Shown here piece by piece: positions 5,215 through 62,572 of a stretch of DNA of 64,000 nucleotides. Position 1 is the first letter of the stretch; the number at the start of each line of letters is the position of its first letter. The notes below the pieces were generated by a model. It did not search any database and was not told where the DNA came from. It saw nothing but the letters and a program-made list of their open reading frames with translations. Source of the DNA: Parafilimonas sp. (GTDB lineage: Bacteria > Bacteroidota > Bacteroidia > Chitinophagales > Chitinophagaceae). Location of the stretch: NCBI GenBank assembly GCA_036274175.1, contig DASUGF010000083.1:79004-143003 (forward strand). Reading direction: 5' to 3'. Position numbers and translations under genes: made by a program.

Positions 5215-6540
5215 ATGAAATACTACATCATTGCAGGGGAAGCGAGTGGCGATCTGCATGGCAGTAATCTTATAAAAGAAATAAAAAAGCTCGATACTGA
5301 TGCTGACATCCGTTGCTGGGGCGGCGATCTCATGCAGGCAGCCGGTGCAACATTGGTAAAACATTACCGCGACCTGGCATTTATGGGTTTTGCAGAAGTG
5401 GTGATGAACCTTAAAACTATCCTTGCCAACCTGAAATTCTGTAAAGAAGATATATTAAAATTTCAGCCTGATGTTTTGGTATTGATCGATTACCCGGGTT
5501 TTAATTTACGCATTGCAGAATGGGCGAAGAAAATGAGGAGTGAGGAACCAGGAATTAGGGATAAGGAATTAGGAATGAGAAATGAGAAATCAGTAATGAG
5601 AAATGAGAAATCAGTAATGAGTGATGAACAGCGACTCACCACTCACCACTCACCACTCATCGCTAAAACTGTCTTCTACATCTCCCCCCAGGTTTGGGCA
5701 TGGAAAGAAAGCCGCGTGCCTAAAATGAAAAAGAATATCGACAGGATGATCGTTATTCTTCCTTTTGAAAAAGATTACTATAAAAACAAATGGCATTGGG
5801 ATGTTGATTATGTGGGACATCCGTTGGTGCAGGTGGTGGAGGAATTTAAGTCCACAGTCCACGGCCGACAGTTCACAGCCGATACTCAGAAGTCAATAGT
5901 CAATAGTGAATGGTCAATGGGCGAGAATTCCCAATTCCCAATTCCCGATTCTCAATTCCAAAATCTTAATATTATCGCCCTGCTGCCGGGAAGCCGCAAA
6001 CAGGAAATTTCAAAAAAGCTTCCGGTCATGCTGGAAGTTAGTAAGGCATTTCCCCAATATCAATTTGTCGTAGCAAAAGCGCCGGCACTTGAAGATGCCT
6101 TTTATGAAAACTTCATGCAGCATTATACCAACGTTTCTTCGGTGACAAACAGGACCTATGAATTGCTGATGCAGGCAAAAGCAGCATTGGTGACCAGCGG
6201 CACTGCAACATTAGAAACCGCTTTGTTTGAAGTACCGGAAGTAGTTTGTTATAAAGGCAGTAATATTAGTTACCAGATCGCAAAGCGGTTGATCAACATA
6301 AAATATATCGCGCTGGTAAATTTAATAATGGACAAGCCGGTTGTAAAAGAACTGATTCAAAATGATCTCACCGTTGAAAATTTAAAGCACGAATTATCCT
6401 TGTTGCTTTTTAATGAAGCAAAACAACAACAGCTAAAAAAAGATTATCAAGACCTGAAAGATATTTTATCAGGCGGTGGTAATGCTTCAGCTAATGCTGC
6501 TAAGATTGTTTTTGATACAGCTTTACCTTACAAGGCTTAA
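5215..6540 (+). CDS. lpxB: lipid-A-disaccharide synthase, carrying two in-frame low-complexity insertions derived from dispersed repeats
   Basis: The N-terminus MKYYIIAGEASGDLHGSNLIKEI is canonical for LpxB, and ISPQVWAWKE and LLPGSRKQEI blocks are present. Two extra segments are translated in frame: MRSEEPGIRDKELGMRNEKSVMRNEKSVMSDEQRLTTHHSPL and STVHGRQFTADTQKSIVNSEWSMGENSQFPIPDSQFQN. Both are encoded by repeat DNA of the kind seen in intergenic regions of this window. Confidence 0.85.
   Translation: MKYYIIAGEASGDLHGSNLIKEIKKLDTDADIRCWGGDLMQAAGATLVKHYRDLAFMGFAEVVMNLKTILANLKFCKEDILKFQPDVLVLIDYPGFNLRIAEWAKKMRSEEPGIRDKELGMRNEKSVMRNEKSVMSDEQRLTTHHSPLIAKTVFYISPQVWAWKESRVPKMKKNIDRMIVILPFEKDYYKNKWHWDVDYVGHPLVQVVEEFKSTVHGRQFTADTQKSIVNSEWSMGENSQFPIPDSQFQNLNIIALLPGSRKQEISKKLPVMLEVSKAFPQYQFVVAKAPALEDAFYENFMQHYTNVSSVTNRTYELLMQAKAALVTSGTATLETALFEVPEVVCYKGSNISYQIAKRLINIKYIALVNLIMDKPVVKELIQNDLTVENLKHELSLLLFNEAKQQQLKKDYQDLKDILSGGGNASANAAKIVFDTALPYKA
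5533..5665. repeat. dispersed short-period repeat element inserted in frame inside lpxB (copy 1)
   Basis: gaatgagaaatgagaaatcagtaatgag repeated twice, then gagtgatga...ctcaccactcaccactcaccactcatc. This has the same unit types (aatgagtaatga and gagtggtgag) as the intergenic element at 33265-33400. Confidence 0.6.
5851..5966. repeat. dispersed short-period repeat element inserted in frame inside lpxB (copy 2)
   Basis: tcaatagtcaatagtgaatggtcaatgg resembles the 18051-18205 element. gaattcccaattcccaattcccgattctcaattccaaaat resembles the 38315-38400 and 21355-21425 octamer repeats. Confidence 0.6.
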
Positions 6541-6726: not shown

Positions 6727-7197
6727 ATGATGAGAACATTTTTATTTGCAGGCATGCTGATCATTGTTGCATTATCTTCCTGTGCTCAGCAACAGGCAGC
6801 GCAAAAATTTGCTGTTACAAAAACAGATGACGAATGGAAAAAAATACTTACGCCTGAACAATTTACCGTTGCAAGAAAAGCAGGCACCGAACGTGCTTTT
6901 AGCGGCAGGTATTGGGATAACCATGAAAAAGGAACCTACTATTGTGTTTGCTGCGGCGTGCCTTTATTCAGCAGTGAAACGAAATTTGAAAGCGGCACGG
7001 GTTGGCCAAGTTTTTATGCGCCTTTAAATAAGAAATATGTAGGGGAAAGAGTGGATGATTCTTATGGCATGGAACGCACCGAAGTGTATTGTACTAATTG
7101 CGGAGCACATTTAGGCCATGTATTTAATGACGGCCCTGCGCCTACCGGTTTGCGTTATTGCATGAACTCTGCATCGCTTAATTTTAAGAAAAAATAA
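6727..7197 (+). CDS. msrB: peptide-methionine (R)-S-oxide reductase MsrB, with lipoprotein-type signal peptide
   Basis: CxxC...CxxC zinc motifs and the catalytic region (YCVCCG...GWPSF...[17 protein letters not shown]). The likely start is ATG 6727 ([22 protein letters not shown]). The ORF-track start at 6637 would translate the upstream repeat DNA. Confidence 0.85.
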
Positions 7198-7235
7198 TGT
7201 GACTGGTGTTAAGTTAAAAGTAAAATACCGCATTT

Positions 7236-7300
7236 TTTCCGTGAGACGTGAGACGACAGACGTGAGATTTTTCACGTCTCACGTTTGACATTTCACGATT
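7236..7300 (+). terminator. hairpin-rich terminator-like element after msrB (tctcacgtttgac family)
   Basis: gtgagacgtgagacgacagacgtgaga-ttttt-cacgtctcacgtttgacatttcacg contains inverted repeats (gacgtga / tcacgtc) around a T-run. The motif tctcacgtttgacRtttca also occurs at 34425-34460. Confidence 0.4.
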
Positions 7301-7493
7301 ACTTAACACTAGTGTTATGTCATGCAGAAATTGTCGCTTTTATTTGCCACGGATCACACAGAAACACGGAAGAATTTGTTGCGACATTATTATGTTGACT
7401 TACCACTAGTATTGAGCGACAAACTACATAAACACACTCTCCGCTTATAAAATCATTATCTTCCGCGCAAAATAAATTTCGACAAACCTATTC

Positions 7494-8735
7494 ATGCGAT
7501 CAATAGAACCACTTATTGTAAAAACACATAAAGCCGCAATTAACCTGCGCAATTGCACAGATACACAGATAAAAAAAACATTGCGTGATCTTGCTGATGC
7601 GCTGGAATCCAATGTGCATGCAATTCTAAAAGCCAATAAAAAAGATGTTGCAAAACAGGATGTAAATGATCCGCGCGTTGACCGTTTATTGCTGAATGAA
7701 CAACGTATAAAAAATATTGCAGGCAGCATCAAAAAAGTAAGCAGGCTGCCCAATCCATCTAATAAAATTCTTGAAAAGCGTAAATTATACAACGGCCTGC
7801 TGTTAGAGAAAATAAGCGTTCCCTTAGGTGTTGTTGGCGCCATATATGAATCAAGGCCAAATGTAACTTTCGATATTGCCGCCTTGTGTTTACGCAGCCA
7901 GAATGCCTGTTTGCTAAAAGGAAGCAGGGAAGCTGAAGCAACCAATCATGTTGCGGTGAAAATAATAAAAGATGTTTTGAAACAAAACAAGATCGATGCT
8001 GATTGTATAACCTTGTTACCCAGTGAACGGGAAGTGGTGCAGGAACTATTCACTGCAACAAAATATGTTGATGTGATCATTCCGCGTGGTTCAGACAGCC
8101 TGATACAATTTGTACGCAAAAACAGTCTTGTGCCTGTAATTGAAACAGGTGCAGGCGTCTGCCATGTTTATGTTGAAACTGATGCCGACATCAATAAAGC
8201 GGTGAGCATTGTTGTAAATGCAAAAACAACGAGGCCTTCTGTTTGCAATTCCCTCGACACAATCGTTGTAGATGAAAAAATTGCAAAACCTTTTTTAGAC
8301 AAGCTTCAACCATTGTTTTCAACCTATCCAGTGGAAATTTTTGCAGATAATAAGTCGTACAAATTATTGAATGGATATGATCATCTTCAAAAAGCATTAC
8401 CCGAAGATTTTGATCGCGAATTCCTTAGCCTGAAATGTGCGGTAAAAACAGTAAAAAACATAGACGAAGCCCTGGCACATATTGCGCAACATTCAACCAA
8501 ACATTCTGAGGCCATCGTATCTGAAAATAAAAAGGCCTGCGAAAGATTTTTGCGTGAAGTGGATGCCGCCGCTGTGTATGCAAATGCTTCTACGCGATTT
8601 ACTGACGGCGAAGAATTTGGTCTTGGTGCAGAGATCGGTATCTCTACCCAAAAATTGCATGCGCGTGGGCCGTTTGCATTGGAAAAACTGGTTTCAGAAA
8701 AATGGGTAGTAAGAGGTAACGGGCAGATCAGGTAA
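7494..8735 (+). CDS. proA: gamma-glutamyl phosphate reductase (glutamate-5-semialdehyde dehydrogenase)
   Basis: 413 aa. ProA-type aldehyde dehydrogenase blocks: VVGAIYESRPNVTFDIAALCLRSQNACLLKGSREA and the catalytic Cys region TRPSVCNSLDTIVV. Confidence 0.85.
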   Translation: MRSIEPLIVKTHKAAINLRNCTDTQIKKTLRDLADALESNVHAILKANKKDVAKQDVNDPRVDRLLLNEQRIKNIAGSIKKVSRLPNPSNKILEKRKLYNGLLLEKISVPLGVVGAIYESRPNVTFDIAALCLRSQNACLLKGSREAEATNHVAVKIIKDVLKQNKIDADCITLLPSEREVVQELFTATKYVDVIIPRGSDSLIQFVRKNSLVPVIETGAGVCHVYVETDADINKAVSIVVNAKTTRPSVCNSLDTIVVDEKIAKPFLDKLQPLFSTYPVEIFADNKSYKLLNGYDHLQKALPEDFDREFLSLKCAVKTVKNIDEALAHIAQHSTKHSEAIVSENKKACERFLREVDAAAVYANASTRFTDGEEFGLGAEIGISTQKLHARGPFALEKLVSEKWVVRGNGQIR

Positions 8736-8787
8736 TATAACTGCGATTGATGATCTTCTGCACACCGCTTTATATTCGCTAACCTGT

Positions 8788-9687
8788 TTGTTAAATTTGA
8801 TCATGCTTTCAAAGCACATTAGAAGAATAACACCAAGGCCAAAAAAGAACAGCAAAGAATATTTTATCTGGTGTGATGAGAGTGATCAGTCCGGCAAATT
8901 TTTTTCTAATTTTTATGGCGGCGTTTTAGTAAAGAGTGAAAACCTGCATGAAGTGATGCATGACCTGCAAAAGGTTTGCAGGCGCCTGCATTTATATGAT
9001 GAAATTAAATGGCAAAAAATTTCCGATCACTATGTGGTAAAATATACCGCGCTGATGGATGCATTTTTTAATTTGATAAAAGATGGCAAAATAAAAGTGC
9101 GCATTATGTTTATTCAAAATACATACAAAACAATTCACCTGCACGATATGCATAAGCGCGATGTTTTTTTTATTTTATATCGCCAGCTTGTCAAACATGC
9201 TTTTGGTTTGATACATAGCAACAACGATGGGAAAGAAATTTTTCTCCGGCTTTATTTCGACTTTCTTCCTTACACACTGAAGAAAAAAGAAATATTTAAA
9301 CAATCGCTCAATAACCTTCAGTCATCAAGTTCTTTTCAACTGGCAGGTATCAAAATAAGAAAACGGGATATATCGGAAGTTGACTCTAAAAAACATTTAT
9401 TGCTGCAAACGCTTGACGTTGTGTTAGGCGCTGTATGCTTTTACTTAAACAACAAACACAAAGAAATTCTGCAGCAAAAGGAAGGAAGCCGGCGTACAAG
9501 GGCAAAAGAAAAAGTATATAAATACATCAATAAAAGAATAAAGCAGATAAGGAAGGGATTTAATATGAGTACTTCAACGGGCATCACTTCAGAACAGGAT
9601 CATTGGATACATAATTACCGTCACTGGAGATTTACACCTGCAGCATTTGAGGCAGATAATGAAAGCATTTTATTCGCGACACATTAA
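8788..9687 (+). CDS. DUF3800-family protein (uncharacterised; often in accessory or defense islands)
   Basis: 299 aa. Begins YFIWCDESDQSGKFF, matching the hhhDESG motif, and has LQTLDVVLGAV, matching lQlaDllaG. Both are recalled DUF3800 signatures. The region looks lower in GC than proA upstream; this is judged by eye only. Confidence 0.55.
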   Translation: MLNLIMLSKHIRRITPRPKKNSKEYFIWCDESDQSGKFFSNFYGGVLVKSENLHEVMHDLQKVCRRLHLYDEIKWQKISDHYVVKYTALMDAFFNLIKDGKIKVRIMFIQNTYKTIHLHDMHKRDVFFILYRQLVKHAFGLIHSNNDGKEIFLRLYFDFLPYTLKKKEIFKQSLNNLQSSSSFQLAGIKIRKRDISEVDSKKHLLLQTLDVVLGAVCFYLNNKHKEILQQKEGSRRTRAKEKVYKYINKRIKQIRKGFNMSTSTGITSEQDHWIHNYRHWRFTPAAFEADNESILFATH

Positions 9688-9740
9688 TTCTTCATCATTA
9701 ATTGATTGAATAAAGTTTGCGTATATAAATTCCTCTGGCG

Positions 9741-10682
9741 CTAAACATCCGCCTCCCGAATAACCATTACCATATCATCATAACCGTTTCTGAATAATAA
9801 CATTTTTAAAGTGCTCATGAAACGGTTAAGCTCTCGTTCCACGATGAGATCATAATCTGTATTCAATTGGTTAAATTCATTGGGAAGCAGGTTGGATATA
9901 GAAAAGTTGATGCCGCTGATGATTGTTGGAAAATCTATTAAGCCCAATGTCTCATCTGTTATATGCGTATCCAGCGTAATATTTCTTGGCCTTCCTGCAT
10001 AGCTAAAACTAACATTCGCTCCGGAAAATTTTCTTTTAAGCCGTTCAAATTTGAGATTAAGATCCGTTGTGATCCTGTCGGGAATGATGATCTTTAATTT
10101 AACGTTGGTATATTTTACCTGATTATAATCAAAGCCGTCATTCTCAATAAGGTATTTGCATGTTGGTGAAATAAGATTTTCAAAATAAACAGCAGCCAGG
10201 GTTGCGGACGGGAAAAAATTGACCTCATTGTCGGAACTGTTCAAAAAAATATTCTTAACCTGTGAAACTGCATCCACAAAACTATTTGCATCTGCTTTGT
10301 CGAATTTTGCCAATGTTATTCCCTGCAGGTCCGACAGCAGCTTTAGATCTTTTTCAATCACAAAAGCGCATTTGGAAAGCCCCAGCCTGCCAATGAATAA
10401 ACCCAATTCAAAAAGTATATTGTCCCTTGGCTGCAACACTTCTGTTTCGTGATAGATCACTCTGTCATCTGTTGTGCCTAACAGAACTCCAAAATCAAAC
10501 TTCAGGGAAGCCTTTAACAGGTCTGACAAAAAATTCTGATTTATCCTGAAAGCAGCAACATCCCATATCCTGTCATTCCACAGGGTGACATCAAACTCTG
10601 TTTCTAAAATCTGTTTAGCTGTATTGGCTAATTGTAATTCTTCAGAAGATGATCCGATAAATATCCGTTTCCTGGTAGCCAT
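9741..10682 (-). CDS. TIR-like (PF10137/COG4271-type) domain protein with uncharacterised ~170-aa C-terminal domain
   Basis: 313 aa. The N-terminal 140 aa align block by block to the recalled PF10137 consensus. RIFIGSSSE matches kvFIgHg. FGVLLGTTDD matches fAiilltpdD. PRDNILFELGLFIGRLGLSKCAFVIEKDLKLLSDLQGI matches pRARqNVvfElGyfvgkLGrervcll...PSDlsGv. No cyclase or CD-NTase gene is adjacent. The gene is a solo unit with its own upstream spacer at 10683-11190. Confidence 0.55.
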   Translation of the reverse strand: MATRKRIFIGSSSEELQLANTAKQILETEFDVTLWNDRIWDVAAFRINQNFLSDLLKASLKFDFGVLLGTTDDRVIYHETEVLQPRDNILFELGLFIGRLGLSKCAFVIEKDLKLLSDLQGITLAKFDKADANSFVDAVSQVKNIFLNSSDNEVNFFPSATLAAVYFENLISPTCKYLIENDGFDYNQVKYTNVKLKIIIPDRITTDLNLKFERLKRKFSGANVSFSYAGRPRNITLDTHITDETLGLIDFPTIISGINFSISNLLPNEFNQLNTDYDLIVERELNRFMSTLKMLLFRNGYDDMVMVIREADV

Positions 10683-11193
10683 TCAATATGGTCATTAACA
10701 ATTTTTAGCAACACAATAATTCTTTGTGCAACTTACAAATTTTTACCGCCCGGGAAGAACCCTTAATGACAAAACAAAGGATGTGGCAATACAAATGATG
10801 GTATCTATTTGCATGCTCTCCTTCAAAAAAGGCACTTCAAAAAGTTTCCCGGCATCAACGCCTAAATCATCAGATGACGGCTTAAGGCGTAAATGCAGCA
10901 TACGGATGGATCAAAAAACATTACAGTAATTACAAAATAAAAATGCAATCGCTCAGCATGCAGGATAACAAGCCTTACGATATAATAACCATTAAGCAAT
11001 CAAACGGGGAAGACCTGTCGCTCTACTTTGATATTTCCAAATTACTTTGGAAAATTTTAAAATTTTGGTGATGACGCAGGCGCGAAACCCGGCAAAACCA
11101 ATAATTGATCACCTGGCTTATACAACCTGGCAGGACATAAATTAACAAATGGGGAATATAATCCAACCTGCCGGGTTCAAATTGGGTTCCATC

Positions 11194-13422
11194 TTAGTTG
11201 CTTTTCTCCAAAAGCAACTTTTGATTGGAAATATCATAAAAATTATCCATCAGTTCGAGCAGTTTTGGCCAATTGGTTGCAGGCTCAAAATTTTTGAGAT
11301 ATTGTTCCTTTACAGTTATGCGAACCGTTGCATCATCTGTTGTTGCTATAGCTGCCACTGAACCGCTTTCATTATTTATGCTCTTATTAAAATTTTCAAT
11401 ACCCTTTACCTTATAACCTTTGGGTATAGACAAGGAGATGGTATATGTATAAGTTCTTCCATACGGCATATAAACATCTATGGCACGGGTGCGGTCCTTC
11501 TCTTCCACTTTCCTGGTGACACCAACCAATTTGCCTGCTTCAACTATATAATTGTTACCTGCCTTCTTTACAAAATTGTCCATAGTAAATTTTGTATGAT
11601 ATTCAAATTCCGAGTTAAACATGCCTTCATTCTTTACTTCATAAATCGTTACCTCCTTCGCAGGCTGGTCATATTGGTTTTTTATCTCATCTTCAAAGTA
11701 AGACTTCTGGTTGGTCTTTTCTTTTGCAAAAGCAGCGCTGAATTCGCTTACGAGTTTATATTGCTTTTTATCATCGGCAAGGCGCTCGGTTAGTTTTTTT
11801 TGATTAACGGATGTTGCCAGGTAGGCTTCCATATCTTCCATCATCAATAATTCTTTTTGTGTATAATGTCTTGTTGCTCCGGATAGTTGTGTAGACCTGT
11901 CTATTTGCAACTGCTGCATATTAGAAGGATTAAATGCAACACTAATATTTTCTGTTTCTGTGTTTTTATCTGCTGTGGTAACCGGGATTTTAATTTTACC
12001 GGTTTGATCGTAAGAAATCTTTTTTACATCCACATCGGGGCGAAACACCAACCCTTCTTCGCCCTGTAACCTCGCGGGTATTTCATTGAATTGTGTTACA
12101 ATATCATTAAATGCAAGCCAGTAATTCTTACCATTTTTTAAATGAAGCATCGCTTCAAAATCGGTAAGGTTCATCACGTCTTTTAATTTATTTGATGTAC
12201 GCGGGCAAACCAGCACCAATTCATGGTCGATACCCAGGGTACGCAACATACGGCTCATGCTAATGGCTCCGACAAGGCTGTTTGCCTGCGTATAATTGTA
12301 ATCATTGGTAATGTCGATATTGGTTGTGGAAAAATCGCAAAAGGTAGTAAGACGCCATGCATTGTATAAAGTTTTTACCAGCGTGTCCTGAGTTTGATCT
12401 TTTAAATGTTTTTCACCGCCAAAATAAGTTGCGGTTCTGTTATACGGTGCATAATTAACAGGTAGGGCCGGGCTTTCAAGAATCTTTTCAAACTGGTCTA
12501 AAAGGTCACTGCTTAAAAAGCCATGCTTCACTTCCCCCCGGTTAAAATGGCTATTGGCATCAGTGCCTTTGGTCAGGAATATATACTGCAGGGAAATGTA
12601 GGGGTACTGCCTGTAGGATGACGTCCATAAACTGCTTTGAATCTTAGGCAGGTTTCTTTGCTCAGAATAAAGAATGATGTTATCATCCTCATCACGCATT
12701 TCTTTTAATGCCGGTGCATTGTTTGCAGTTACGTATTCTGCACCTGATTTTTCATCTAACTGAAGCCGTATGGATTGATATAATATGGGGTATTCACCAC
12801 CTAAGAAAAATGTATATGGGCCTTGTGTTTCGGTGGTGAGTTCCTGTATTTTTTCTGTACGAATGTAATAATCCAGGATATCACCTACCTGCAGGTCAGG
12901 AATGGCAAGCTTGCTTTCTTTCTTTTTGTTTTCATCTTTGGTTAACACTTCCTCGCCTGTATTTACCATTATTTCTTTACCATCTGCCTTAATAATTTTT
13001 GCGCCGATGTATGTATCTGTCTTATTATACAATTTAATTAAAGCAACAGAAACAGTTTTATCCAGCTTTTTCTGGTATTCCAGTGTAGAATAATCACCCA
13101 ATGCAGCCTTATCATTTATCTTCACTCTTTCGTGAAATGTTGTTTGATAATAAATCCGCGGTACAGAGCCAAAACCCAAAGGGCTGAATTTCATTTTCAT
13201 TTTGCCGCTGTTCACCACATCAAAAGATGTCGCGATAATAACAGCACTTTCATTGTTCATTTCCGCAGGAACTGATTTTACCGCAAACTCTTTTGAAGGT
13301 GTATTCCATATTTCAGTTTGGATATCCTGTGCTCTTTTCTTGTAAGCGGATTCATCTTTTTGCGCGAGTGCACTTAATACGGTACATACCGATAGTACAG
13401 TAAATACAATTTTAATTCTCAT
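11194..13422 (-). CDS. DUF3858/transglutaminase-like lipoprotein; catalytic Cys appears to be absent (pseudo-transglutaminase paralog)
   Basis: 742 aa with signal peptide MRIKIVFTVLSVCTVLSALAQ. The region GAISMSRMLRTLGIDHELV...AMLHLKNGKNYWLAFND aligns to the transglutaminase core of the adjacent 627-aa protein, but a Cys-to-Ile/Ser change and an Asp-to-Ala change fall at the catalytic positions. There is a 3-nt gap to the upstream gene. Confidence 0.5.
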   Translation of the reverse strand: MRIKIVFTVLSVCTVLSALAQKDESAYKKRAQDIQTEIWNTPSKEFAVKSVPAEMNNESAVIIATSFDVVNSGKMKMKFSPLGFGSVPRIYYQTTFHERVKINDKAALGDYSTLEYQKKLDKTVSVALIKLYNKTDTYIGAKIIKADGKEIMVNTGEEVLTKDENKKKESKLAIPDLQVGDILDYYIRTEKIQELTTETQGPYTFFLGGEYPILYQSIRLQLDEKSGAEYVTANNAPALKEMRDEDDNIILYSEQRNLPKIQSSLWTSSYRQYPYISLQYIFLTKGTDANSHFNRGEVKHGFLSSDLLDQFEKILESPALPVNYAPYNRTATYFGGEKHLKDQTQDTLVKTLYNAWRLTTFCDFSTTNIDITNDYNYTQANSLVGAISMSRMLRTLGIDHELVLVCPRTSNKLKDVMNLTDFEAMLHLKNGKNYWLAFNDIVTQFNEIPARLQGEEGLVFRPDVDVKKISYDQTGKIKIPVTTADKNTETENISVAFNPSNMQQLQIDRSTQLSGATRHYTQKELLMMEDMEAYLATSVNQKKLTERLADDKKQYKLVSEFSAAFAKEKTNQKSYFEDEIKNQYDQPAKEVTIYEVKNEGMFNSEFEYHTKFTMDNFVKKAGNNYIVEAGKLVGVTRKVEEKDRTRAIDVYMPYGRTYTYTISLSIPKGYKVKGIENFNKSINNESGSVAAIATTDDATVRITVKEQYLKNFEPATNWPKLLELMDNFYDISNQKLLLEKSN

Positions 13423-13425
13423 AAT

Positions 13426-15309
13426 TTATGGGGCAGTTAATACTATTTGCTGGTTATATGCTTCTGTAAGTTTTGCGATGTCATCATTCCATTGCTTAAA
13501 ATTTATTTTGGCAATTTGTGTGCTTTTAAGAATAATGCTTTTATGATAAATAATCTTGTTGGATTGTTGTGTATAAGTAATATTAAACTCGTAGTTATTG
13601 TTTTTTACGGAAAGGTCAGGAGGTACTGAACTTATTTTATATCCTGCCGGAACTGTGAGTTCTGTAATGCGTTCCACATGTGTTTTATAAGGGAAGAGAT
13701 AATCAAGCTTGCGTTTTGAAGTGTCAAAGTCGCTGCCATTTAATTCCTTCTTAAAATCAAGGTCGACATAAAAATCTTTGCCAAAAGAAGTCACGATGTT
13801 GCTATGGGTGACTGAATAAGTTGCTGTGAGGTCTCCTTCAATATCATCAAGATCTGATGTTTTGAGATCCGTTATTTTATAATCTGCATTTCCGTCGGCC
13901 AGGTATCTTTTTAACGCGTCCTGCGACTTATCTTTCTTAATATAATTTAGCTGATACAAAATGTACTCCTTCTCTTCTCCTTTCCAGTTTTCGTTTACAG
14001 TTCCGTTAAGTTCGGCGCCATTTATCGCAAGCACCCTTTTTTCTGAATCGAGATTTTGTGCGTATGTTTCGAGGGGCACATGTGTAAGTATATATTTATC
14101 GCCATCTTCAATCAATATCTGCCTGCCTTGTATGCGTTCAGCATAATCATCCAGGCCGAGATAATTTTCCGTGGCATCCAGGAAATACGTTTTGCCTTTA
14201 TACATTAAAGCGCAGATCATGTGATTGTCCACTGCAAGCGAAGGCGTTGAATAGTCGTAAGCAATGTGATTAGTGCCCAGCCAGCAAAGCCTTGCATCAA
14301 AGCCTTCCGCTTTTAAAAGTTCTTTGGTAAGGTTGGCCATACCTTTACAGTCACCGTATTTTTTCCGCATCACTTCTTCTGCTTTATCGGGCAAAAAGCC
14401 TGCAATGCCATCTTCAAAAGCTATGTAACGGATATTATTCTGCACCCAGTAAAAAATGGCTTTTACTTTATCCATATCGGCTGTTTTACCGGCAGTAAGT
14501 TCATCAGCTTTTCCTTTTATAATGGTTGCATTGCTGGAAAGATTTTTTAAGATAGAGCGGTACCAGGCATACTGGTCGGCAGTAGATTTAAAAAAAGTAA
14601 TGGTAGCACCTGCGGGATTCGCCTCTTTTGAAATCACCAGTATATGCGGGTAAATGTATGTTGGACCGGGGCATGATTTTTCGTTATTACGCGCTTCGAT
14701 ATTATTAGCAGTGAATGTATAAATATCCTCATCTGTTTTGGAATCATATCCCTTTGTTGTGCTGATGGAATAGCCGTCGAAATTCATTTCTTTTAATTCA
14801 ATGCGCATCCATTTAGGCACTTTAAAAACAACCTGCTTTGAAGCAACAGGATACATTTCATCAAAATAAATATTCGTAAGATAACGCGGGTCTTGTATAG
14901 TTTTCTGAAAATCAACTTCAGCTATACTGCCCTTTTTATCCAATAATAAAGGGAAGTAACATATGTGGGCATCTGAATAGAAATAATCATCCACCTGGTA
15001 GTAGGAATAAACAGGTTTAACATCTTTAGGTTTTTTCCCGTCAACGGAAAAATCAACCGCATCAATAATCATCTTGTCGTTGTAAAACTCAACAACCGGT
15101 AATGTGCTGCGGAATTCATTACATCGATAAGTTATATTCAGCGATTCTTTTACCTGTACGCTGTTGGACGGTTTATCCCAAACAAACTCATACACTTCTT
15201 TACTGCTGGTGATAACTATATTGGAATCTTTTTCAGCAAAATTTCCGGCACTTGCTTTAAGGCAACAGGCAATTAAAATGGTACAGGTTACGGGTAATCT
15301 CATGCTCAC
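13426..15309 (-). CDS. DUF3857 + transglutaminase-like cysteine protease domain lipoprotein
   Basis: 627 aa with a signal peptide. The transglutaminase core is YGDCKGMANLTKELLKAEGFDARL (catalytic Cys), DNHMICALMY (His) and YFLDATENY (Asp). Confidence 0.65.
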   Translation of the reverse strand: MSMRLPVTCTILIACCLKASAGNFAEKDSNIVITSSKEVYEFVWDKPSNSVQVKESLNITYRCNEFRSTLPVVEFYNDKMIIDAVDFSVDGKKPKDVKPVYSYYQVDDYFYSDAHICYFPLLLDKKGSIAEVDFQKTIQDPRYLTNIYFDEMYPVASKQVVFKVPKWMRIELKEMNFDGYSISTTKGYDSKTDEDIYTFTANNIEARNNEKSCPGPTYIYPHILVISKEANPAGATITFFKSTADQYAWYRSILKNLSSNATIIKGKADELTAGKTADMDKVKAIFYWVQNNIRYIAFEDGIAGFLPDKAEEVMRKKYGDCKGMANLTKELLKAEGFDARLCWLGTNHIAYDYSTPSLAVDNHMICALMYKGKTYFLDATENYLGLDDYAERIQGRQILIEDGDKYILTHVPLETYAQNLDSEKRVLAINGAELNGTVNENWKGEEKEYILYQLNYIKKDKSQDALKRYLADGNADYKITDLKTSDLDDIEGDLTATYSVTHSNIVTSFGKDFYVDLDFKKELNGSDFDTSKRKLDYLFPYKTHVERITELTVPAGYKISSVPPDLSVKNNNYEFNITYTQQSNKIIYHKSIILKSTQIAKINFKQWNDDIAKLTEAYNQQIVLTAP

Positions 15310-15501: not shown

Positions 15502-16626
15502 TTAATAATCGATCACCTGTTCAACGATCATTTCAGGTATTTCCCGCCATTCATATTGCTGATTGCGTAACTGTGGTTCAAAGCCCGCTTCTTTAATGGC
15601 TTTCTGAATTGTCTTATACGTAAACCGGTGCGGCGCACCTGCAGCGCTTACCACATTCTCTTCGATCATGATGCTGCCAAAATCATTGGCGCCGGCATGT
15701 AAACAAAGTTGTGCGGTTTGCTTGCCTACCGTAAGCCAGCTTGCCTGTATGTTTTTTATATTTGGTAACATAATACGGCTCATGGCTATCATTCTCACGT
15801 ATTCTTCTGCAGTGGTAAGATTATGTACGCCGCGAATGCGTGCCAGTAAAGTATCCGCATCCTGGAATGTCCACGGAATAAAAGCCAGGAAGCCTTTTGC
15901 GTTTTCCGGTTTCATTGACTGCACTTCGCGTATGCGCGCCAGGTGAATAAAACGTTCTTCAATAGTTTCCACATGGCCAAACATCATAGTTGCGCTTGTA
16001 GTGATATGCAGCTTGTGCGCTTCTTGCATAACAGCCAGCCATTCATCAGCGCCGCACTTGCCTTTGCTGATAAGCCTTCTTACACGGTCAACCAAAATTT
16101 CTGCACCGGCGCCGGGTAGAGAATCAAGCCCGGCATTTCTTAATTCGATTAAAGCTTCGCGATGTGATTTCTTCGACAGCTTGCATATATGCGCCACTTC
16201 AGGCGGACCCAAAGCATGCAGCTTTATATTAGGATATTCCTGTTTTATTTGCCTGAAAGTATTCGTGTAAAAATCAAGACCCAATTGCGGATGATGGCCG
16301 CCTTGTAACAACAACTGGTCGCCGCCATATTTCAATGTTTCTTCAATTTTCCTGCGATAGACAGGCATCTCAGTTATATAAGCTTCAGGATGTCCCGGAA
16401 TACGGTAGAAATTACAAAACTTACAGTTGGCCACACAAACATTTGTAGTATTTACATTGCGGTCGATCTGCCAGGTAACTTTACCATGTGGCGCCTGCTT
16501 TTTGCGTAGCTCATTCGCTACATACATGAGCTCTGTAAGCGGTGAATGTTCAAAAAGAAAAACACCTTCCCCAACACTTAAAAATTCAAAATTCAAAGCT
16601 TTTTCATACAATGCTGCAACATTCAT
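15502..16626 (-). CDS. radical SAM enzyme, MqnC/MqnE (CofH-like) family, futalosine-type menaquinone biosynthesis
   Basis: 374 aa. CVANCKFCNFY is the CxxxCxxC radical-SAM cluster motif. The N-terminal region (QIDRNVNTTNVC) resembles MqnC/MqnE/CofH. MqnC and MqnE cannot be told apart by eye. Confidence 0.55.
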   Translation of the reverse strand: MNVAALYEKALNFEFLSVGEGVFLFEHSPLTELMYVANELRKKQAPHGKVTWQIDRNVNTTNVCVANCKFCNFYRIPGHPEAYITEMPVYRRKIEETLKYGGDQLLLQGGHHPQLGLDFYTNTFRQIKQEYPNIKLHALGPPEVAHICKLSKKSHREALIELRNAGLDSLPGAGAEILVDRVRRLISKGKCGADEWLAVMQEAHKLHITTSATMMFGHVETIEERFIHLARIREVQSMKPENAKGFLAFIPWTFQDADTLLARIRGVHNLTTAEEYVRMIAMSRIMLPNIKNIQASWLTVGKQTAQLCLHAGANDFGSIMIEENVVSAAGAPHRFTYKTIQKAIKEAGFEPQLRNQQYEWREIPEMIVEQVIDY

Positions 16627-40745: not shown

Positions 40746-43700
40746 CTATTCTTTAAAGATCAATTTTGAATAACTCCAGTTGCCTATCTGCAGCCTGATT
40801 GTATATATTCCGGGCGTAAGTCCGTTCAATGATAAGTTTACTGTTTGCGGACTTCTCAGGTCTTTTACCTGCCGGAACTCTTTTCTTACAGAACCCTGCA
40901 GATCGGCAACCTGTATTTTTACTATACCTGTATTCTCATTGTTGATCGTCAAATTGAATCTGTCCCTTACAGGGTTAGGACTTATTTCAAAAGAAGATGC
41001 ATCAGCCATCGAAGCTTCCACACGCTCAGTCCGTGAAAAGTCTTCAGTATTTTGTGCGATCAGGCTGCTGCTCTTTGTAAACTCAAGCCAGTTAAAATTG
41101 AAGTCCTGTGCTGCTTTTGAAATTATTCGCAGGGTTTGCGGACCCTGTGGTAGTGTTATACCGGTACTTACTGTTGACCAGGTTTGGTAACCGCCTGTTT
41201 TAGGAATATTCACGTTCGCCAATACAGTTCCATCGGGTTTTGTTATCGACAATTTTGCGGCTGTGTTGGGTGTGGCTATTCTGAAGGTTACATTGTACGT
41301 GCCGGCTGACGATGCATTTACATAGTAATCCAGCCAGTCGTTGTTATTTATCCAGCCTACATTAAGACCGCCACCTGTGTCGCCGGTAGGTTCCATTTGT
41401 ATTCCCAGCATGGTAGTATAAGCTTCGGCCTCAATTTTTGCCGGTATTATTTTGGCTGATGGTACACCGCGTACAAATTCCATCCAGTTAAAATTCCATA
41501 CAAGACTTGCGGTAGAGATGACTCTAATCGTTTGATATCCCTGGGCGAGAGATACAACAATACTTCTCGTGATCCATCCCTGGTAGCTTGCCGTGTTGGG
41601 TAGGTCGAGGCTGCCTAACACAGTGCCATCCGATTTACGCAGTTGCAATTTCGCACCGTTATTCGCAGTTGCCACTCTGAAATTTACCGTATAGGTGCCT
41701 GCAGAATCTACATACACGTTAAAGTCCATCCGATCGCCGTTATCGATCCATCCCACATCGAGGCCACCGCCTGCATCGCTTGTATTTTCCGTTTTTATGC
41801 CACTCATTGAAGTGTAAGCTTCCGCTTCAATCTTTCCGGGAATAAGTTTGTAGCCTGCCAGGATTTGCGTTACAACAACATTCATGTCATCTGTAGCAGT
41901 AGCACCTTTATTATCCGTAACAGTAAGCCGGAACGTGTAAGTACCCGCGACAAGATTAGTTAACACCGGCGCTGCAATATTGGTGTTGCTGATAGTAAAT
42001 TGAGAAGGCCCTGAAACCTTTGTCCAGCCGTAAGAAGCAATGGTGCCATCAACATCAGTACCACTGCCTGATAAGGATACTGTATTCAACGGTAATATAA
42101 TTGATTGATCACTTCCTGCATCGGCAACCGGTGGCTGATTGGGAGCAGAAAGTACCGTAATTATTAAAGTATCTGTTGCTGTTGCGCCTGCTTTATCAGT
42201 AACTTTTAATTCAAACTGGTAAGTGCCTTCTGTAAGATCATTTACAATTGTCTCTTTATCATCCGGAGACGCTATGGAAAATTGGGCAGGCCCGCTAACC
42301 TTGCTCCATAAGTAAGAAGCAATCGGTCCTTCTGCATCTGAAGCGCTGCCTGATAGCAACACACTATCCTTTGGCAACGTAATAACCTGGTCACTTCCTG
42401 CATTGGCAACCGGTGGCTGGTTAGGAACAGGAAGTAAGGTAACCGTTAAAGTATCTGTTGCTGTTGCGCCTGCGTTATCAGTAACTTTTAATTCAAATTG
42501 ATAAGTGCCTTCTGTAAGATCATTTACAATTGTCTTTTTATCATTCGAAGAGGCTATAGAAAATTGTTCAGGTCCGCTTACTTTAGTCCACAAATAAGAT
42601 GCAATAGTGCCGTCGGCATCTGAAGCGTTGCCTGATAGCAACACACTATCCTTGGGCAACGTAATTGTCTGGTCACTTCCTGCATTGGCAACAGGTGGTT
42701 GATTAGGTGCAGGAAGTACCGTAGCTATTAAAGTATCTCTTGCTGTTGCGCCTGCATTATCAGTAACTTTTAATTCAAACTGGTAAGTGCCTTCCGCAAG
42801 ATCATCCACAATTGTCTTTTTATCATTCGAAGAGGCTATAGAAAATTGTTCAGGTCCGCTTAATTTAGTCCACAAATAAGATGCAATAGTGCCGTCGGCA
42901 TCTGAAGCAGTGCCTGATAGCAACACACTATCCTTGGGCAACGTAATTGTCTGGTCACTTCCTGCATTGGCAACAGGCGGTTGATTAGGTGCAGGAAGTA
43001 CCGTAACTATTAAAGTATCTCTTGCTGTTGCGCCTGCATTATCAGTAACTTTTAATTCAAACTGGTAAGTGCCTTCCGCAAGATCATCCACAATTGTCTT
43101 TTTATCATTCGAAGAGGCTATAGAAAATTGTTCAGGTCCGCTTACTTTAGTCCACAAATAAGATGCAATCGTTCCGTCTGCATCCGATGCATTGCCCGAC
43201 AGCGATACGCTATCCTGCGGCAATGAAATTTCCTGGTCGGTTCCCGCGTCAGCAACCGGTGGCTGATTAGGCGGTAATACGGTTATGGTAACTGTGTCTT
43301 TTGACATGTCTCCGTCATTATCTGTAACCATTAATTCAAATTGATAAATTCCTTGTGTCAAACCTGACACTACGGTTTGTGCCTGATGTTTCTGTTCTAT
43401 AAGGAATTGATCCGGCCCGTCAATTTTTTCCCATTGATAATCCGTTATTGTTCCATCTGTATCGGAGCCCGAACCACTTAGAGTAATACTGTCGGCAGGA
43501 AAGTAAATAGCCTGGTCATTTCCTGCATCAGCTACCGGCGGTTGATTAGGTGCAGGAAGTACAGTAACCGTTACGGTGTCTGTTGCTATGCCACCTGTAT
43601 TATCCGTCACTTTTAATTCAAACTGGTAAGTGCCTTCTGTAAGATCATCTGCAATCGTATTTTTATCACCCGGAGATACTATGGAAAATTGTTCGGGTCC

Positions 43701-46376
43701 GCTTACTTTAGTCCACAAATAAGATGCAATAGTGCCGTCGGCATCTGAAGCAGTGCCTGACAGCGATATGCTATCCGTCGGCAATGAAATTTCCTGGTCG
43801 GCACCCGCATCGGCAACCGGTGGCTGATTAGGCGGCAATACGGTTATGGCAACTGTATCTTTTGATATGTCTCCGTCATTATCTGTGACCGTTAATTCAA
43901 ATTGATAAACTCCTTGTGTCAAACCTGAAACTACGGTTTCTGCCTGATGTTTCTGTTCTATCAGGAATTGATCCGGCCCGTCAATTTTTTCCCATTGATA
44001 ATCTGTTATTGTTCCATCGGTATCTGAGCCCGAGCCATTCAGGGTTATATTATCAGCAGGTAAATAGATCACCTGGTCATCACCGGCACTGGCTACAGGA
44101 ATTTTATTAGGAGGCGGGTCCATTACTGATACCATTACTGTGTCAGCCGATGAGGCGCCTTCATTATCTGTTGCGGCTAATTCAAATTGATAAATACCGG
44201 CATGAAGACCACTCACTACAGTTTCCGGTTGATCAGGAGAAACTATATTAAATGAAGCAGGTCCATCAATCTTTTTCCATTGATACGCAGTTATTGTTCC
44301 ATCAGGATCGTTTGCAATGCCTTGAAGTGTTAGAGAATCGGCCGGCAAAATAATTACCCGGTCATTACCGGCGTTTACAAAGGGTGGCTGGTTTGGTTGA
44401 CGCAGCACAGCAATCGTTACAGTATCAGCATCCGACTCGTTATGATCGTCGGTAACAATCAGTTCGAATTTATATACACCTTCCTGGAGACCATTAACCA
44501 ATGTTTGCAACTGGTGTGGCGATTCAATATTGATTTGCCCGGGTCCATTTACCTTGTTCCATACATAAGAAGATATCTTTCCTTCCGGGTCTGAAGCCGT
44601 TCCTGTTAGTGTTACGCTATTAACCGGAAGTGTAATTGCCTGGTCATTTCCTGCATCCGCAACCGGCGGTTTATTGGGAGCAGGCAATACGCTGACCGTT
44701 ACTGTGTCTTTAGCTGCATCACCCGAATTATCCGTCACTTTAAATTCAAACCGGTAAGTGCCTTCTGCAAGATTAGCCACAATCGTCTGCGATTGATTAG
44801 GCGTGATGATAGAAGACGAAACAGGCCCGCTTATTTGACGCCACAGGTAAGCGGAGATGGTACCATCCTGATCCGTTGCAGTGCCTGAAAGTAGCACACT
44901 ATCCAGAGGTAAAGTAATTGACTGATCGTTTCCTGCATTGGCAACCGGGAGCATATTAGGCGCCGGCAATACCGTTATGGTCATCGTATCTTTTGCTGCA
45001 CTCCCTGAGTTGTCAGTTACCTTAAGTTCAAACTGATAAACGCCTTGTACCAGTTTAGTGATAAATGTTTGGGATTGCACGGGGGTGGTAATGAAAAACT
45101 GTGAAGGGCCGCTTATTTTACTCCATAAATAGGATGAGATCGTTCCATCCTGATCTGTCGCAGTACCTGAAGCCAATACGCTATCCAATGGTAAGGTAAT
45201 GGTAAGATCAATTCCTGCATTGACAACAGGTGGCTTATTAGGAGCTGGTAATACAGTTATTGCCACGGTATCCTTTGCGGTTGCGCCTATATTATCGGTG
45301 ACTTTTAGTTCAAACTTATAAATTCCTGCCACAAAATTTCTGATCACTGTTTCAGCCATCGTTGGCGATTCTATGGCAAATTGTGAAGGCCCCGAAATCT
45401 TCGTCCAGACGTAGGAGGTGATGGTGCCATCAATATCTGATGCAGTGCCGGTTATTTTAATAGTGTCTTTTGGTAACGTTACGCTTTTATCCGGTCCGGC
45501 ATTCACTACAGGCAACAGGTTAGGTGGCGGCGGTGGTTGCACGGCATCAGTCCGTTGGTACTGCAACATCCATTCATAAAAATTGCGGCTGATGGAATTA
45601 TTTCTCCAGGAAGCGTCAAACACCATCGTCCAGAGTGCTGTATCGTGCGCATATTTGGGAACGCCGGTGAGCAATGCCGGCACTGCTGGTTTAGGAGTGG
45701 CCGTATTAATTGTATTCACATAGCTGGATGCAAGGCTATATAAACCATCCTGTGTGCCGCATACCGTCCAAACCTTAACGCCATATTTCCCGCTTATGTA
45801 TTTGATATTGGGCGACTCTACATTTGGGTTGTTTACACCCACACTGCTTATAGGAAGTATGGCAGCAAACTTTTTGGTAAAATTACTGTCATTGGTTACG
45901 GATGACCATGTGCCGCCGCCACCGGATGAGATACCCATTATATATACCCTTTTCGCATCAACCCTGTACCGGCTCATAACATCCGGCAATATATTTTTTA
46001 CATGCGTATAGCTGTACGACCAACCGCTGCTGGTTGGAGCCTGTGGAGTAACCACTATAAACTTATACGTTTTCCCATCTGCCGGATTAACAGCCTGCGG
46101 ATCCCATCCTTCTGCTATTTTCCTGGGTAAGCCAACATTGAGCAGCTTGGATAATCCCTGGATGCCATCGCCTACTTCTCCGGCAGCATGCAGAAATATG
46201 ATCAGCGGGTAATAGGTATTGGTGGAATTATAATCTGCAGGCAGCCAGGTGAGTCCATATGTTTTGGAACCACCGCCGATGGGATACTGATCAGCCAATT
46301 GCCTGCCGATAATTGTTTGAGCAGTTGCATTAAATTCAAGACAAACCAATAACACCAGGAGTAAAGGAGTTTTCAT
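40746..46376 (-). CDS. T9SS-secreted multidomain protein: esterase/PHB-depolymerase-like alpha/beta hydrolase + ~13 PKD-like repeats + 2 carbohydrate-binding modules + T9SS C-terminal sorting domain
   Basis: 1876 aa. Signal peptide. N-terminal hydrolase with GISSGGGGTWS. About 13 units of ~95 aa beginning VNAGxDQxITLP and ending TDNxGAxAxDT. Two CBM6/35-like modules (KIEAEAYTSMSGIKTENTSDAGGGLDVGWIDNGD). C-terminal FEISPNPVRDRFNL...GIYTIRLQIGNWSYSKLIFKE is a Por/T9SS sorting domain. Confidence 0.85.
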   Translation of the reverse strand: MKTPLLLVLLVCLEFNATAQTIIGRQLADQYPIGGGSKTYGLTWLPADYNSTNTYYPLIIFLHAAGEVGDGIQGLSKLLNVGLPRKIAEGWDPQAVNPADGKTYKFIVVTPQAPTSSGWSYSYTHVKNILPDVMSRYRVDAKRVYIMGISSGGGGTWSSVTNDSNFTKKFAAILPISSVGVNNPNVESPNIKYISGKYGVKVWTVCGTQDGLYSLASSYVNTINTATPKPAVPALLTGVPKYAHDTALWTMVFDASWRNNSISRNFYEWMLQYQRTDAVQPPPPPNLLPVVNAGPDKSVTLPKDTIKITGTASDIDGTITSYVWTKISGPSQFAIESPTMAETVIRNFVAGIYKFELKVTDNIGATAKDTVAITVLPAPNKPPVVNAGIDLTITLPLDSVLASGTATDQDGTISSYLWSKISGPSQFFITTPVQSQTFITKLVQGVYQFELKVTDNSGSAAKDTMTITVLPAPNMLPVANAGNDQSITLPLDSVLLSGTATDQDGTISAYLWRQISGPVSSSIITPNQSQTIVANLAEGTYRFEFKVTDNSGDAAKDTVTVSVLPAPNKPPVADAGNDQAITLPVNSVTLTGTASDPEGKISSYVWNKVNGPGQINIESPHQLQTLVNGLQEGVYKFELIVTDDHNESDADTVTIAVLRQPNQPPFVNAGNDRVIILPADSLTLQGIANDPDGTITAYQWKKIDGPASFNIVSPDQPETVVSGLHAGIYQFELAATDNEGASSADTVMVSVMDPPPNKIPVASAGDDQVIYLPADNITLNGSGSDTDGTITDYQWEKIDGPDQFLIEQKHQAETVVSGLTQGVYQFELTVTDNDGDISKDTVAITVLPPNQPPVADAGADQEISLPTDSISLSGTASDADGTIASYLWTKVSGPEQFSIVSPGDKNTIADDLTEGTYQFELKVTDNTGGIATDTVTVTVLPAPNQPPVADAGNDQAIYFPADSITLSGSGSDTDGTITDYQWEKIDGPDQFLIEQKHQAQTVVSGLTQGIYQFELMVTDNDGDMSKDTVTITVLPPNQPPVADAGTDQEISLPQDSVSLSGNASDADGTIASYLWTKVSGPEQFSIASSNDKKTIVDDLAEGTYQFELKVTDNAGATARDTLIVTVLPAPNQPPVANAGSDQTITLPKDSVLLSGTASDADGTIASYLWTKLSGPEQFSIASSNDKKTIVDDLAEGTYQFELKVTDNAGATARDTLIATVLPAPNQPPVANAGSDQTITLPKDSVLLSGNASDADGTIASYLWTKVSGPEQFSIASSNDKKTIVNDLTEGTYQFELKVTDNAGATATDTLTVTLLPVPNQPPVANAGSDQVITLPKDSVLLSGSASDAEGPIASYLWSKVSGPAQFSIASPDDKETIVNDLTEGTYQFELKVTDKAGATATDTLIITVLSAPNQPPVADAGSDQSIILPLNTVSLSGSGTDVDGTIASYGWTKVSGPSQFTISNTNIAAPVLTNLVAGTYTFRLTVTDNKGATATDDMNVVVTQILAGYKLIPGKIEAEAYTSMSGIKTENTSDAGGGLDVGWIDNGDRMDFNVYVDSAGTYTVNFRVATANNGAKLQLRKSDGTVLGSLDLPNTASYQGWITRSIVVSLAQGYQTIRVISTASLVWNFNWMEFVRGVPSAKIIPAKIEAEAYTTMLGIQMEPTGDTGGGLNVGWINNNDWLDYYVNASSAGTYNVTFRIATPNTAAKLSITKPDGTVLANVNIPKTGGYQTWSTVSTGITLPQGPQTLRIISKAAQDFNFNWLEFTKSSSLIAQNTEDFSRTERVEASMADASSFEISPNPVRDRFNLTINNENTGIVKIQVADLQGSVRKEFRQVKDLRSPQTVNLSLNGLTPGIYTIRLQIGNWSYSKLIFKE
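41880..45540 (-). repeat. tandem ~285-nt coding repeats (PKD-like modules); several are near-identical at nucleotide level
   Basis: For example the 42400-43250 units differ by only a few nt (…ctggtcacttcctgcattggcaacaggtggttgattaggtgcaggaagtaccgta…). The repeat is protein-coding, not CRISPR. Confidence 0.8.
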
Positions 46377-62571: not shown

Positions 62572-62572
62572 A

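Follow-up and report, generated by a model that had tools for sequence, protein, structure and literature searches.

What keeps a cyclic dinucleotide receptor in a genome neighborhood that contains no enzyme to make its ligand? This question is raised by a locus in a 64,000-nucleotide (64 kb) stretch of contig DASUGF010000083.1, part of a metagenome-assembled genome (MAG) of Parafilimonas sp.; this whole stretch is referred to below as the window. Between proA and an operon for transglutaminase-like lipoproteins, the original prediction placed two convergent open reading frames (ORFs), and both are present. One encodes a DUF3800 protein and the other a TIR-STING protein (Cap12), an effector of cyclic oligonucleotide-based antiphage signaling systems (CBASS). 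In relatives, the gene for this effector almost always lies directly behind that of a cyclase of the cGAS/DncV-like nucleotidyltransferase (CD-NTase) family, and none is found here. The reading favored below, with a probability of about 0.55 for the whole of it, is that a functional Class II TIR-STING has been kept without a linked CD-NTase and that its signal comes from a cyclase encoded at another, unlinked place in the genome.

Identity of the TIR-STING Protein

The gene, the domains of its product and the DNA upstream of it are located in the window as follows.

9741-10682, minus strand: TIR-STING (Cap12) gene, encoding 313 amino acids (aa), intact, with its ATG at 10682
10296-10667, minus strand: TIR-like NAD+ hydrolase (NADase) domain, residues 6-129, with predicted catalytic Glu92 (PF10137, 9.5e-30)
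9804-10211, minus strand: prokaryotic STING domain, predicted to bind cyclic dinucleotides, residues 158-293 (PF20300, 8.1e-37)
10683-11193: spacer of 511 bp, the site of the cyclase (and E2) gene in relatives, with no coding remnant detected
10717-10778, minus strand: conserved noncoding block, candidate promoter or regulatory region of the STING gene (83% identity to the sister contig L007 over 64 nt)

Both halves of the protein belong to described Pfam families. The N-terminal ~140 aa had been predicted to form a TIR-like domain of the Cap12/Pycsar type, which the match to PF10137 (CAP12-PCTIR_TIR) bears out. The C-terminal ~170 aa, left unassigned by the same prediction, are in fact a full-length prokaryotic STING domain, as all 137 of the 137 profile positions of PF20300 are matched. 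The NCBIfam Cap12 equivalog model NF050171, which has a curated cutoff of 450 bits, is matched at 486.5 bits over model positions 1-304 of 305, and the PADLOC model of CBASS TIR effectors, PDLC00729, at 5.4e-113. In the Protein Data Bank (PDB), the protein matches 6wt5 (2e-51), full-length Cap12 9lmq (7.9e-39) and 7un8 (7.3e-33), with 50% identity to the CgSTING crystal sequence 6wt5 over 163 aa. An identical protein from a Parafilimonas sp. MAG is present in NCBI under the name 'STING domain-containing protein'. A full-length Pycsar PycTIR effector was considered and ruled out; the matches to PycTIR cover the TIR part alone (PADLOC, 2.2e-19, residues 3-138; PDB 8jsj, 2e-7), and the sensor is unmatched. 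The TIR-STING architecture has been known since 2020. On these sequence matches, the 313-aa protein can be placed with near certainty in the known CBASS TIR-STING (Cap12) family. This family is well studied, and the protein, already labeled STING in NCBI, is an ordinary member of it.

Intactness of the TIR and STING Motifs

The residues on which NAD+ hydrolysis depends in a characterized homolog are all present. In SfSTING, the NAD+ pocket is formed by F6, S10, W33, F37, L47, R78, and N80, with E84 as the catalytic residue and D110 contributed by the dimer mate (PMC9402430). A phmmer alignment to 7un8 places F8, S12, W35, F45, L55, R86, N88, E92, and D118 of the window protein at these positions, an identical set in which E92 aligns with the catalytic E84. 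The STING domain carries the β-strand lid motif R231-P232-R233, and this RXR lid and the DFPT segment (D250, T253) are invariant. An RXR lid is the mark of Class II STINGs (FsSTING, CgSTING), and an RXF lid that of Class I (SfSTING; Ko et al. 2022, PMC8748872). An alignment of 66 cyclase-linked STINGs has 89 columns with conservation of at least 95%; the window protein shows no deviation at any of them, compared with an average of 0.71 deviations in the cyclase-linked sequences themselves. Conservation at all 89 columns suggests that the protein would still form filaments upon ligand binding and hydrolyze NAD+.

Absence of the Cyclase and Rarity of That State

The original prediction reported that no cyclase was present, and searches of several kinds bear this out for the locus and for the window as a whole. 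Four STING-linked cyclases and two E2 proteins, compared with the 64 kb by tblastn, gave a best E value of 0.35 and no match in the 511-bp spacer. A hidden Markov model (HMM) built from 72 STING-linked cyclases matched no window ORF, and a scan of the window for the GGDEF motif was likewise negative. Pfam searches of 30 further ORFs and PADLOC searches of nine ORFs that lacked annotation revealed no nucleotide cyclase of any type. The idea that another part of the window hides a cyclase, perhaps a divergent one, is rejected on these results. So is a cyclase or E2 pseudogene in the spacer, which gave no tblastn match; the one gene call there, of 37 aa, is not conserved in L007. A complete CBASS has a CD-NTase adjacent to its effector, and this locus has none. 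Two of the arrangements originally proposed thus describe it well. It is an orphan effector, a TIR-STING with no cyclase at the locus or in the 64 kb, and, being a bona fide Cap12, it also fits the 'TIR-STING-like protein that has lost its synthase'.

The original prediction also took such effectors to sit beside a cyclase as a rule, and the neighborhoods of homologs agree. An alignment-based scan with one genome per species yielded 67 STING loci, 66 of them with enough upstream sequence to be assessed. An intact CD-NTase gene lies directly upstream of STING in 64 of these 66 (~97%), with an E2 gene between the two in six of the 64 cyclase-linked loci. The remaining two are L040, with a split cyclase, and L027, from a Chitinophagaceae MAG, with none. 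The absence of a cyclase from the window locus is therefore real, and it is a rare state (~3% or less). No paper on a cyclase-less bacterial STING was found in literature searches, and the locus represents an uncommon, apparently stable cyclase-less organization that was not found described for bacteria.

Shared Synteny, Selection, and the Upstream Region

The age of the solo state can be judged from sister genomes, in which the genes around STING recur. The neighbors concerned are the following.

7494-8735, plus strand: proA (NF001221, 530.9 bits), which borders DUF3800-STING on the left in every sister contig as well
8803-9687 (ATG, 294 aa) or 8788-9687 (TTG, 299 aa), plus strand: DUF3800 gene
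11194-15309, minus strand: two-gene lipoprotein operon (742 aa; 627 aa), a variable segment of the locus
15502-16626: mqnC-type radical-SAM gene, beyond the lipoprotein operon

The DUF3800 and STING genes are convergent, with 53 bp between their stop codons, and to their left the order is gdh-lpxB-msrB-proA, with the identities of msrB and lpxB also confirmed. The complete order gdh-lpxB-msrB-proA-DUF3800-STING is found as well in L007 and L080, two sister contigs that share 99.1% identity, and the proA-DUF3800-STING adjacency also in L001. A third sister, a Joint Genome Institute (JGI) contig, has the same locus, with a DUF3800 protein that is 80% identical, a 313-aa STING and no cyclase. In each of the three sister genomes, the ORF is a full-length 313 aa. 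After STING in the JGI contig comes an mqnC-type gene, at a distance of ~400 bp, and the lipoprotein pair is absent, so that the mobile or variable segment of the locus is the lipoprotein pair (11194-15309) and not DUF3800-STING. In the window, the second gene of this operon (627 aa) encodes a transglutaminase core, and the 742-aa product has no family match. An orthologous lipoprotein, 77% identical, occurs in contig L078 with different downstream neighbors. A first scan of reference genomes with a single protein gave no clean empty site, and a metagenome scan with the flanking lipoprotein returned L078, which is uninformative on this point since it has no proA and its synteny breaks.

The 282 bp that precede STING in L007 show homology to the window spacer, with 83% identity over 64 nt beside the start codon and, at a greater distance from it, 71% over 111 nt. 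The homology to a noncoding spacer means that the cyclase-less state is common to the window and this sister genome. The divergence of the two lineages was estimated gene by gene, as the synonymous divergence (dS) and the ratio of nonsynonymous to synonymous divergence (dN/dS) between window and sister.

gdh: dN/dS 0.013, dS 0.65
proA: dN/dS 0.065, dS 0.61
STING: dN/dS 0.066, dS 0.79
lpxB: dN/dS 0.113, dS 0.64
DUF3800: dN/dS 0.12-0.13, dS 0.66-0.69
msrB: dN/dS 0.139, dS 0.66

The dS values are alike across all of these genes, which indicates vertical co-inheritance, and the ratio of 0.066 for STING indicates that constraint after loss of the cyclase has been at housekeeping level.

The base composition of the region agrees with this history. 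The original prediction described an accessory, lower-GC insert, a label that is marginal at best. The region has a GC content of 0.364 where the whole window has 0.406, which ranks it at the 6th percentile of segments of its size, and the adjoining lipoprotein genes have the same GC content as the DUF3800-STING region. The z scores for GC are -1.16 for DUF3800 and -0.52 for STING; those for GC at third codon positions (GC3), -0.39 and +0.16, make the pair indistinguishable from its flanks. A recent horizontal insert or genomic island was rejected on the normal GC3 and on the dS of the pair (0.66-0.79, compared with 0.61-0.66 for gdh, lpxB, msrB, and proA), the two genes having been inherited together with their housekeeping neighbors. 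Judged from these comparisons, this is an old, vertically inherited and selectively maintained solo STING, neither a recent low-GC insert nor a decaying remnant.

The conservation extends to DNA upstream of the gene. Between the window and L007, the 64-nt block is 83% conserved, compared with a proportion of differences of 0.49 at synonymous sites of the adjacent gene (pS), which suggests that the block at 10717-10778 is the promoter or regulatory region of STING itself. A second block conserved with L007, at 10965-11074 (71% over 111 nt), holds a conserved hairpin, TTTCCAAAGTAATTTGGAAA, and may serve to terminate transcription or to bind a protein. The 37-aa ORF in the spacer lies at 10958-11071 on the plus strand. 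RNA from the spacer folds no better than shuffled sequences, the best z score, at the block 10965-11074, being -1.7. Scans for sigma-70 promoters and terminators gave counts at or below shuffle expectation, although such scans are uninformative for a Bacteroidota genome.

Relatives and the Likely Ancestral Operon

A neighbor-joining tree of all these STINGs places the window protein with P0002/L007 and P0003/L008, to which it is 90% and 81% identical, respectively. The sister of this group consists of L009, L010, and L002 (73-75% identity to the window protein), and these six clusters are all of the relatives with at least 73% identity in a collection of 5.8 billion proteins. L009 is the nearest cyclase-linked relative (STING 74% identical) and the sole one of the six with a cyclase. 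Its operon, a type II-short CBASS, consists of a DncV-like cyclase (PDLC00774, 5e-121), an E2-only Cap2-like protein (PDLC00865, 2e-53), in which Pfam sees a SEC-C motif alone, and then STING. In L010, the E2 protein is reduced to its C-terminal 138 aa (949-1368), and a fragment of an AAA_21 gene occupies the position of the absent cyclase. No cyclase is present within 11 kb in L002, whose STING has a GyrI-like gene on one side and one for an isochorismatase on the other. A DncV-like cyclase, E2 and STING are probably the ancestral operon type of the subclade, and it is likely that several members lost cyclase and E2 from this three-gene operon.

Other loci illustrate further stages and combinations. 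The cyclase of L040 (6935-7995) is split into ORFs of 250 aa and 132 aa, and in L048 (2138-5129) cyclase-like genes flank STING on both sides; together with L010, these loci show CBASS-STING operons in the course of decay or rearrangement. Seven loci (L009, L028, L065, L066, L068, L073, and L074) combine a PDLC00774 cyclase, an E2-only PDLC00865 protein of ~220 aa that ends in a SEC-C zinc motif, and STING. STING effectors are therefore common to CdnE-type type I and DncV-type type II-short systems. Operons of a Bacteroidota-type cyclase and a TIR-STING with 61-64% identity to the window protein also occur on short contigs in MAGs of unrelated phyla, namely L018 and L043 (Saccharibacteria), L021 (Methanolobus), L076 (Limnohabitans), and L014 and L028 (Ignavibacteria). 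For the saccharibacterial, archaeal, and betaproteobacterial bins, contamination during binning is more likely than real transfer. A phage origin of STING was also considered and rejected, since a collection of viral contigs contained no relatives.

The Favored Explanation and Its Alternatives

How might the solo effector work? By homology to SfSTING, CgSTING, and FsSTING, a 3',3'-cyclic dinucleotide, either c-di-GMP or 3'3'-cGAMP, would bind the STING dimer. The β-strand lid would then close and the protein would polymerize into filaments, in which TIR domains would come together to form a composite active site, centered on Glu92, that hydrolyzes NAD+. Depletion of NAD+ would cause the infected cell to stop growing or die. 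This scheme of lid closure, filaments, TIR NADase assembly, and NAD+ loss is modeled on published mechanisms (PMC9402430, PMC12421889). For Class I STINGs, c-di-GMP has been shown to be the ligand, and 3'3'-cGAMP was proposed for Class II without functional data (Ko et al., PMC8748872); the DncV-like cyclase in L009, the nearest operon, would agree with 3'3'-cGAMP. The STING gene would have been separated from its CD-NTase and then inherited vertically beside proA and DUF3800 with an upstream region of its own. The activating nucleotide would come, most probably, from a CD-NTase encoded elsewhere in the genome, whether by an unlinked gene or within a second CBASS operon, because an effector that could not be triggered would not be held at a dN/dS of 0.066.

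Several points weigh against this explanation. Cooperating bacterial defense genes are nearly always adjacent. CD-NTase and STING in particular have been stated to sit together in operons (10.1101/2025.09.04.674280). The 64 kb in which no cyclase was found are part of a 143-kb MAG contig, and a cyclase acting in trans is inferred, not observed. Since the source is a MAG, incompleteness could hide a cyclase even from a search of the whole assembly. Finally, dN/dS integrates over the entire divergence, so that a very recent relaxation of selection would stay hidden.

The alternative that survives best, though it is doubtful, dispenses with the host cyclase. The solo TIR-STING would be a stand-alone sensor of foreign cyclic dinucleotides, produced by enzymes of phages or mobile elements or by neighbors that make c-di-GMP. 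The age of the solo state, the purifying selection on it, the unchanged ligand pocket and the gene's own conserved upstream block all speak for such a role. Four contexts can be assessed in the subclade with 73% identity or more, and three of them (that of the window, L002, and L010) are cyclase-less and represent different neighborhoods, although the cases are few and were taken from metagenome contigs. Standalone STINGs of eukaryotes provide a precedent (10.1101/2025.09.04.674280). However, no direct evidence points to a foreign source of ligand, STING relatives are absent from the viral contigs, and an unlinked host cyclase is simpler. It is conceivable, if unlikely, that the lineage has turned a CBASS effector into an autonomous STING receptor with no dedicated host cyclase, triggered by foreign dinucleotides or by the pooled output of unrelated systems. 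If true, prokaryotes would possess an equivalent of the standalone STINGs found in unicellular eukaryotes, and the receptor might represent an intermediate stage in the unlinking of STING from its synthase.

An improbable alternative is that the gene is a nonfunctional leftover. The operon would have lost its cyclase (and E2), leaving an effector that is silent or useless, harmless without ligand and so far undecayed. Relatives caught in mid-decay, L010 with a truncated E2 and no cyclase and L040 with a split cyclase, show that such losses occur, and a TIR-STING without ligand would be expected to be inactive and of low cost (inferred from PMC9402430). The selection data contradict this account, as STING at a dS of 0.79 has a dN/dS equal to that of proA in the same genome pair. 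A neutral gene would by now carry ~0.6-0.8 substitutions per site as well as indels and stop codons, yet the ORF is full-length in every sister, the 89 conserved columns are unchanged and the upstream region is conserved.

What stands out is the genetics of the locus. In ~97% of relatives the cyclase gene lies only a few bases upstream, whereas here a STING with no linked cyclase has lasted, under constraint of the housekeeping level, for ~0.6-0.8 synonymous substitutions per site. Should an unlinked cyclase exist, the locus would be a case of trans-acting CBASS signaling, with effector and synthase uncoupled as in animals; should the genome be without one, it would encode a bacterial stand-alone sensor of cyclic dinucleotides. 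Either outcome bears on the evolutionary unlinking of cGAS-STING pathways.

The DUF3800 Neighbor

The gene convergent with STING was correctly identified at the outset as encoding a DUF3800 protein. PF12686 is matched with 32.9 bits (cutoff 21), the motif FIWCDESDQSG is present, and the PADLOC defense candidate PDC-M04A is matched at 7e-16. Among 34 homologs, E26, Q202, and D205 (294-aa numbering) are invariant, while conservation of D25 is 90% or higher, giving DE and QxxD motifs. No sequence relative of the protein was found in the PDB. An AlphaFold2 model computed from the 34 homologs, with a mean per-residue confidence (pLDDT) of 86.8 and a predicted template modeling score (pTM) of 0.86, predicts an RNase H-like fold. 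The same fold was predicted earlier for DUF3800 proteins of type VII retrons (PMC7736814) and of loci linked to Cas12a2 (PMC10910872). Eleven structured RNA motifs, DUF3800-I to XI, have been described beside DUF3800 genes (Weinberg et al. 2017, PMC5737381). Neither one of these motifs nor any other Rfam family was detected in 7000-12500 at E values up to 1, the association being frequent but not required, and the spacers that flank DUF3800 and STING contain no significant RNA fold.

That the DUF3800 protein and TIR-STING form a new two-gene system is very improbable. In such a system, the part of the cyclase, that of sensor or signal generator, would fall to DUF3800, which might for example release nucleotide products to be bound by STING. 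The pair is adjacent, co-inherited in at least three genomes and under purifying selection in both of its genes, and DUF3800 recurs in defense contexts, namely the retrons, Cas12a2-linked loci and PADLOC candidate named above. However, the genes are convergent and not co-transcribed, and an RNase H fold is that of a hydrolase, not a cyclase. A general association of DUF3800 with STING was rejected because, among ~75 STING loci, the DUF3800 HMM matches only the window's own lineage. The solo STINGs of L002, L008, and L027 have no DUF3800, and a DUF3800 relative with 65% identity stands alone in an unrelated neighborhood of glycosyltransferase genes. Given the convergent orientation and the lack of general linkage, DUF3800 is best regarded as an independent neighbor, possibly related to defense, rather than a part of the STING system.

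The last alternative, the original suggestion of a new fusion of a TIR effector to a sensor domain not previously known, can be dismissed, because the C-terminal domain is STING, matched end to end by PF20300 and 50% identical to a crystallized bacterial STING, and the architecture is already known, with a curated equivalog model and a STING name in NCBI.

Other Features of the Window

Three further observations concern genes elsewhere in the window. The lpxB gene (5215-6540) encodes a protein of 441 aa, compared with 401-408 aa in the sister contigs. Relative to L080, it has two extra in-frame segments, at 5590-5631 and 5857-5913, the first of which holds a tandem MRNEKSV-MRNEKSV repeat; the remainder of LpxB is ~90% identical. 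On the minus strand at 40746-46376 lies the gene for a secreted protein of 1876 aa, with 13 K319L-like PKD repeats, two CBM6 modules, and a C-terminal sorting domain of the type IX secretion system, an ordinary surface or glycan-binding protein of Bacteroidota.

The only genes of the window that deviate strongly in composition are two at 61531-63874 on the minus strand (GC 0.28-0.29; z for GC3 of about -2.7). The 433-aa product of one (62573-63874) matches the PADLOC defense ATPase NsnB at 3.7e-35, as well as PDC-M55A, HEC-03B, AriA, and GajA/AbiL-like AAA models; its 346-aa neighbor has no match in NCBIfam or PADLOC. The segment looks like a recently acquired defense islet at the window edge.

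Comparison With Known Systems

The window locus can be set beside four kinds of bacterial system and one of eukaryotes. In type I CBASS, CdnE is paired with a TIR-STING, as for SfSTING of Sphingobacterium faecium (7UN8) and ElSTING of Epilithonimonas lactis (PMC12421889). These proteins have the same two-domain architecture and length as the window protein, which keeps all of the published NADase pocket residues and the catalytic Glu. The window differs in having no CD-NTase, either adjacent or within the 64 kb, and in its RXR lid, where SfSTING has RXF. The Class II proteins CgSTING (6WT5) and FsSTING (6WT4), both likewise from Bacteroidota, are closer in this respect; the GRPRN lid and DFPT are identical, and identity to CgSTING is 50% across the STING domain. 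Both, however, come from CBASS operons that contain a cyclase, which in L071 (Capnocytophaga granulosa) lies directly upstream of STING, whereas the window has none. Type II-short CBASS, exemplified by L009, supplies the nearest linked relative of the window STING, but the window lacks both the cyclase and E2. Pycsar PycTIR (8JSJ) shares the PF10137 TIR-like NADase domain. In PycTIR this domain is C-terminal, behind a different sensor, and a STING domain is absent, while in the window protein TIR is N-terminal and STING C-terminal.

A parallel to a receptor without a linked cyclase is found among the standalone STINGs of choanoflagellates and fungi (Li et al. 2025, 10.1101/2025.09.04.674280), which retain binding of 3'3'-c-di-GMP. 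These eukaryotic proteins carry other effector modules, and in their case the absence of a cyclase is genome-wide, whereas for the TIR-STING of the window it extends over 64 kb.

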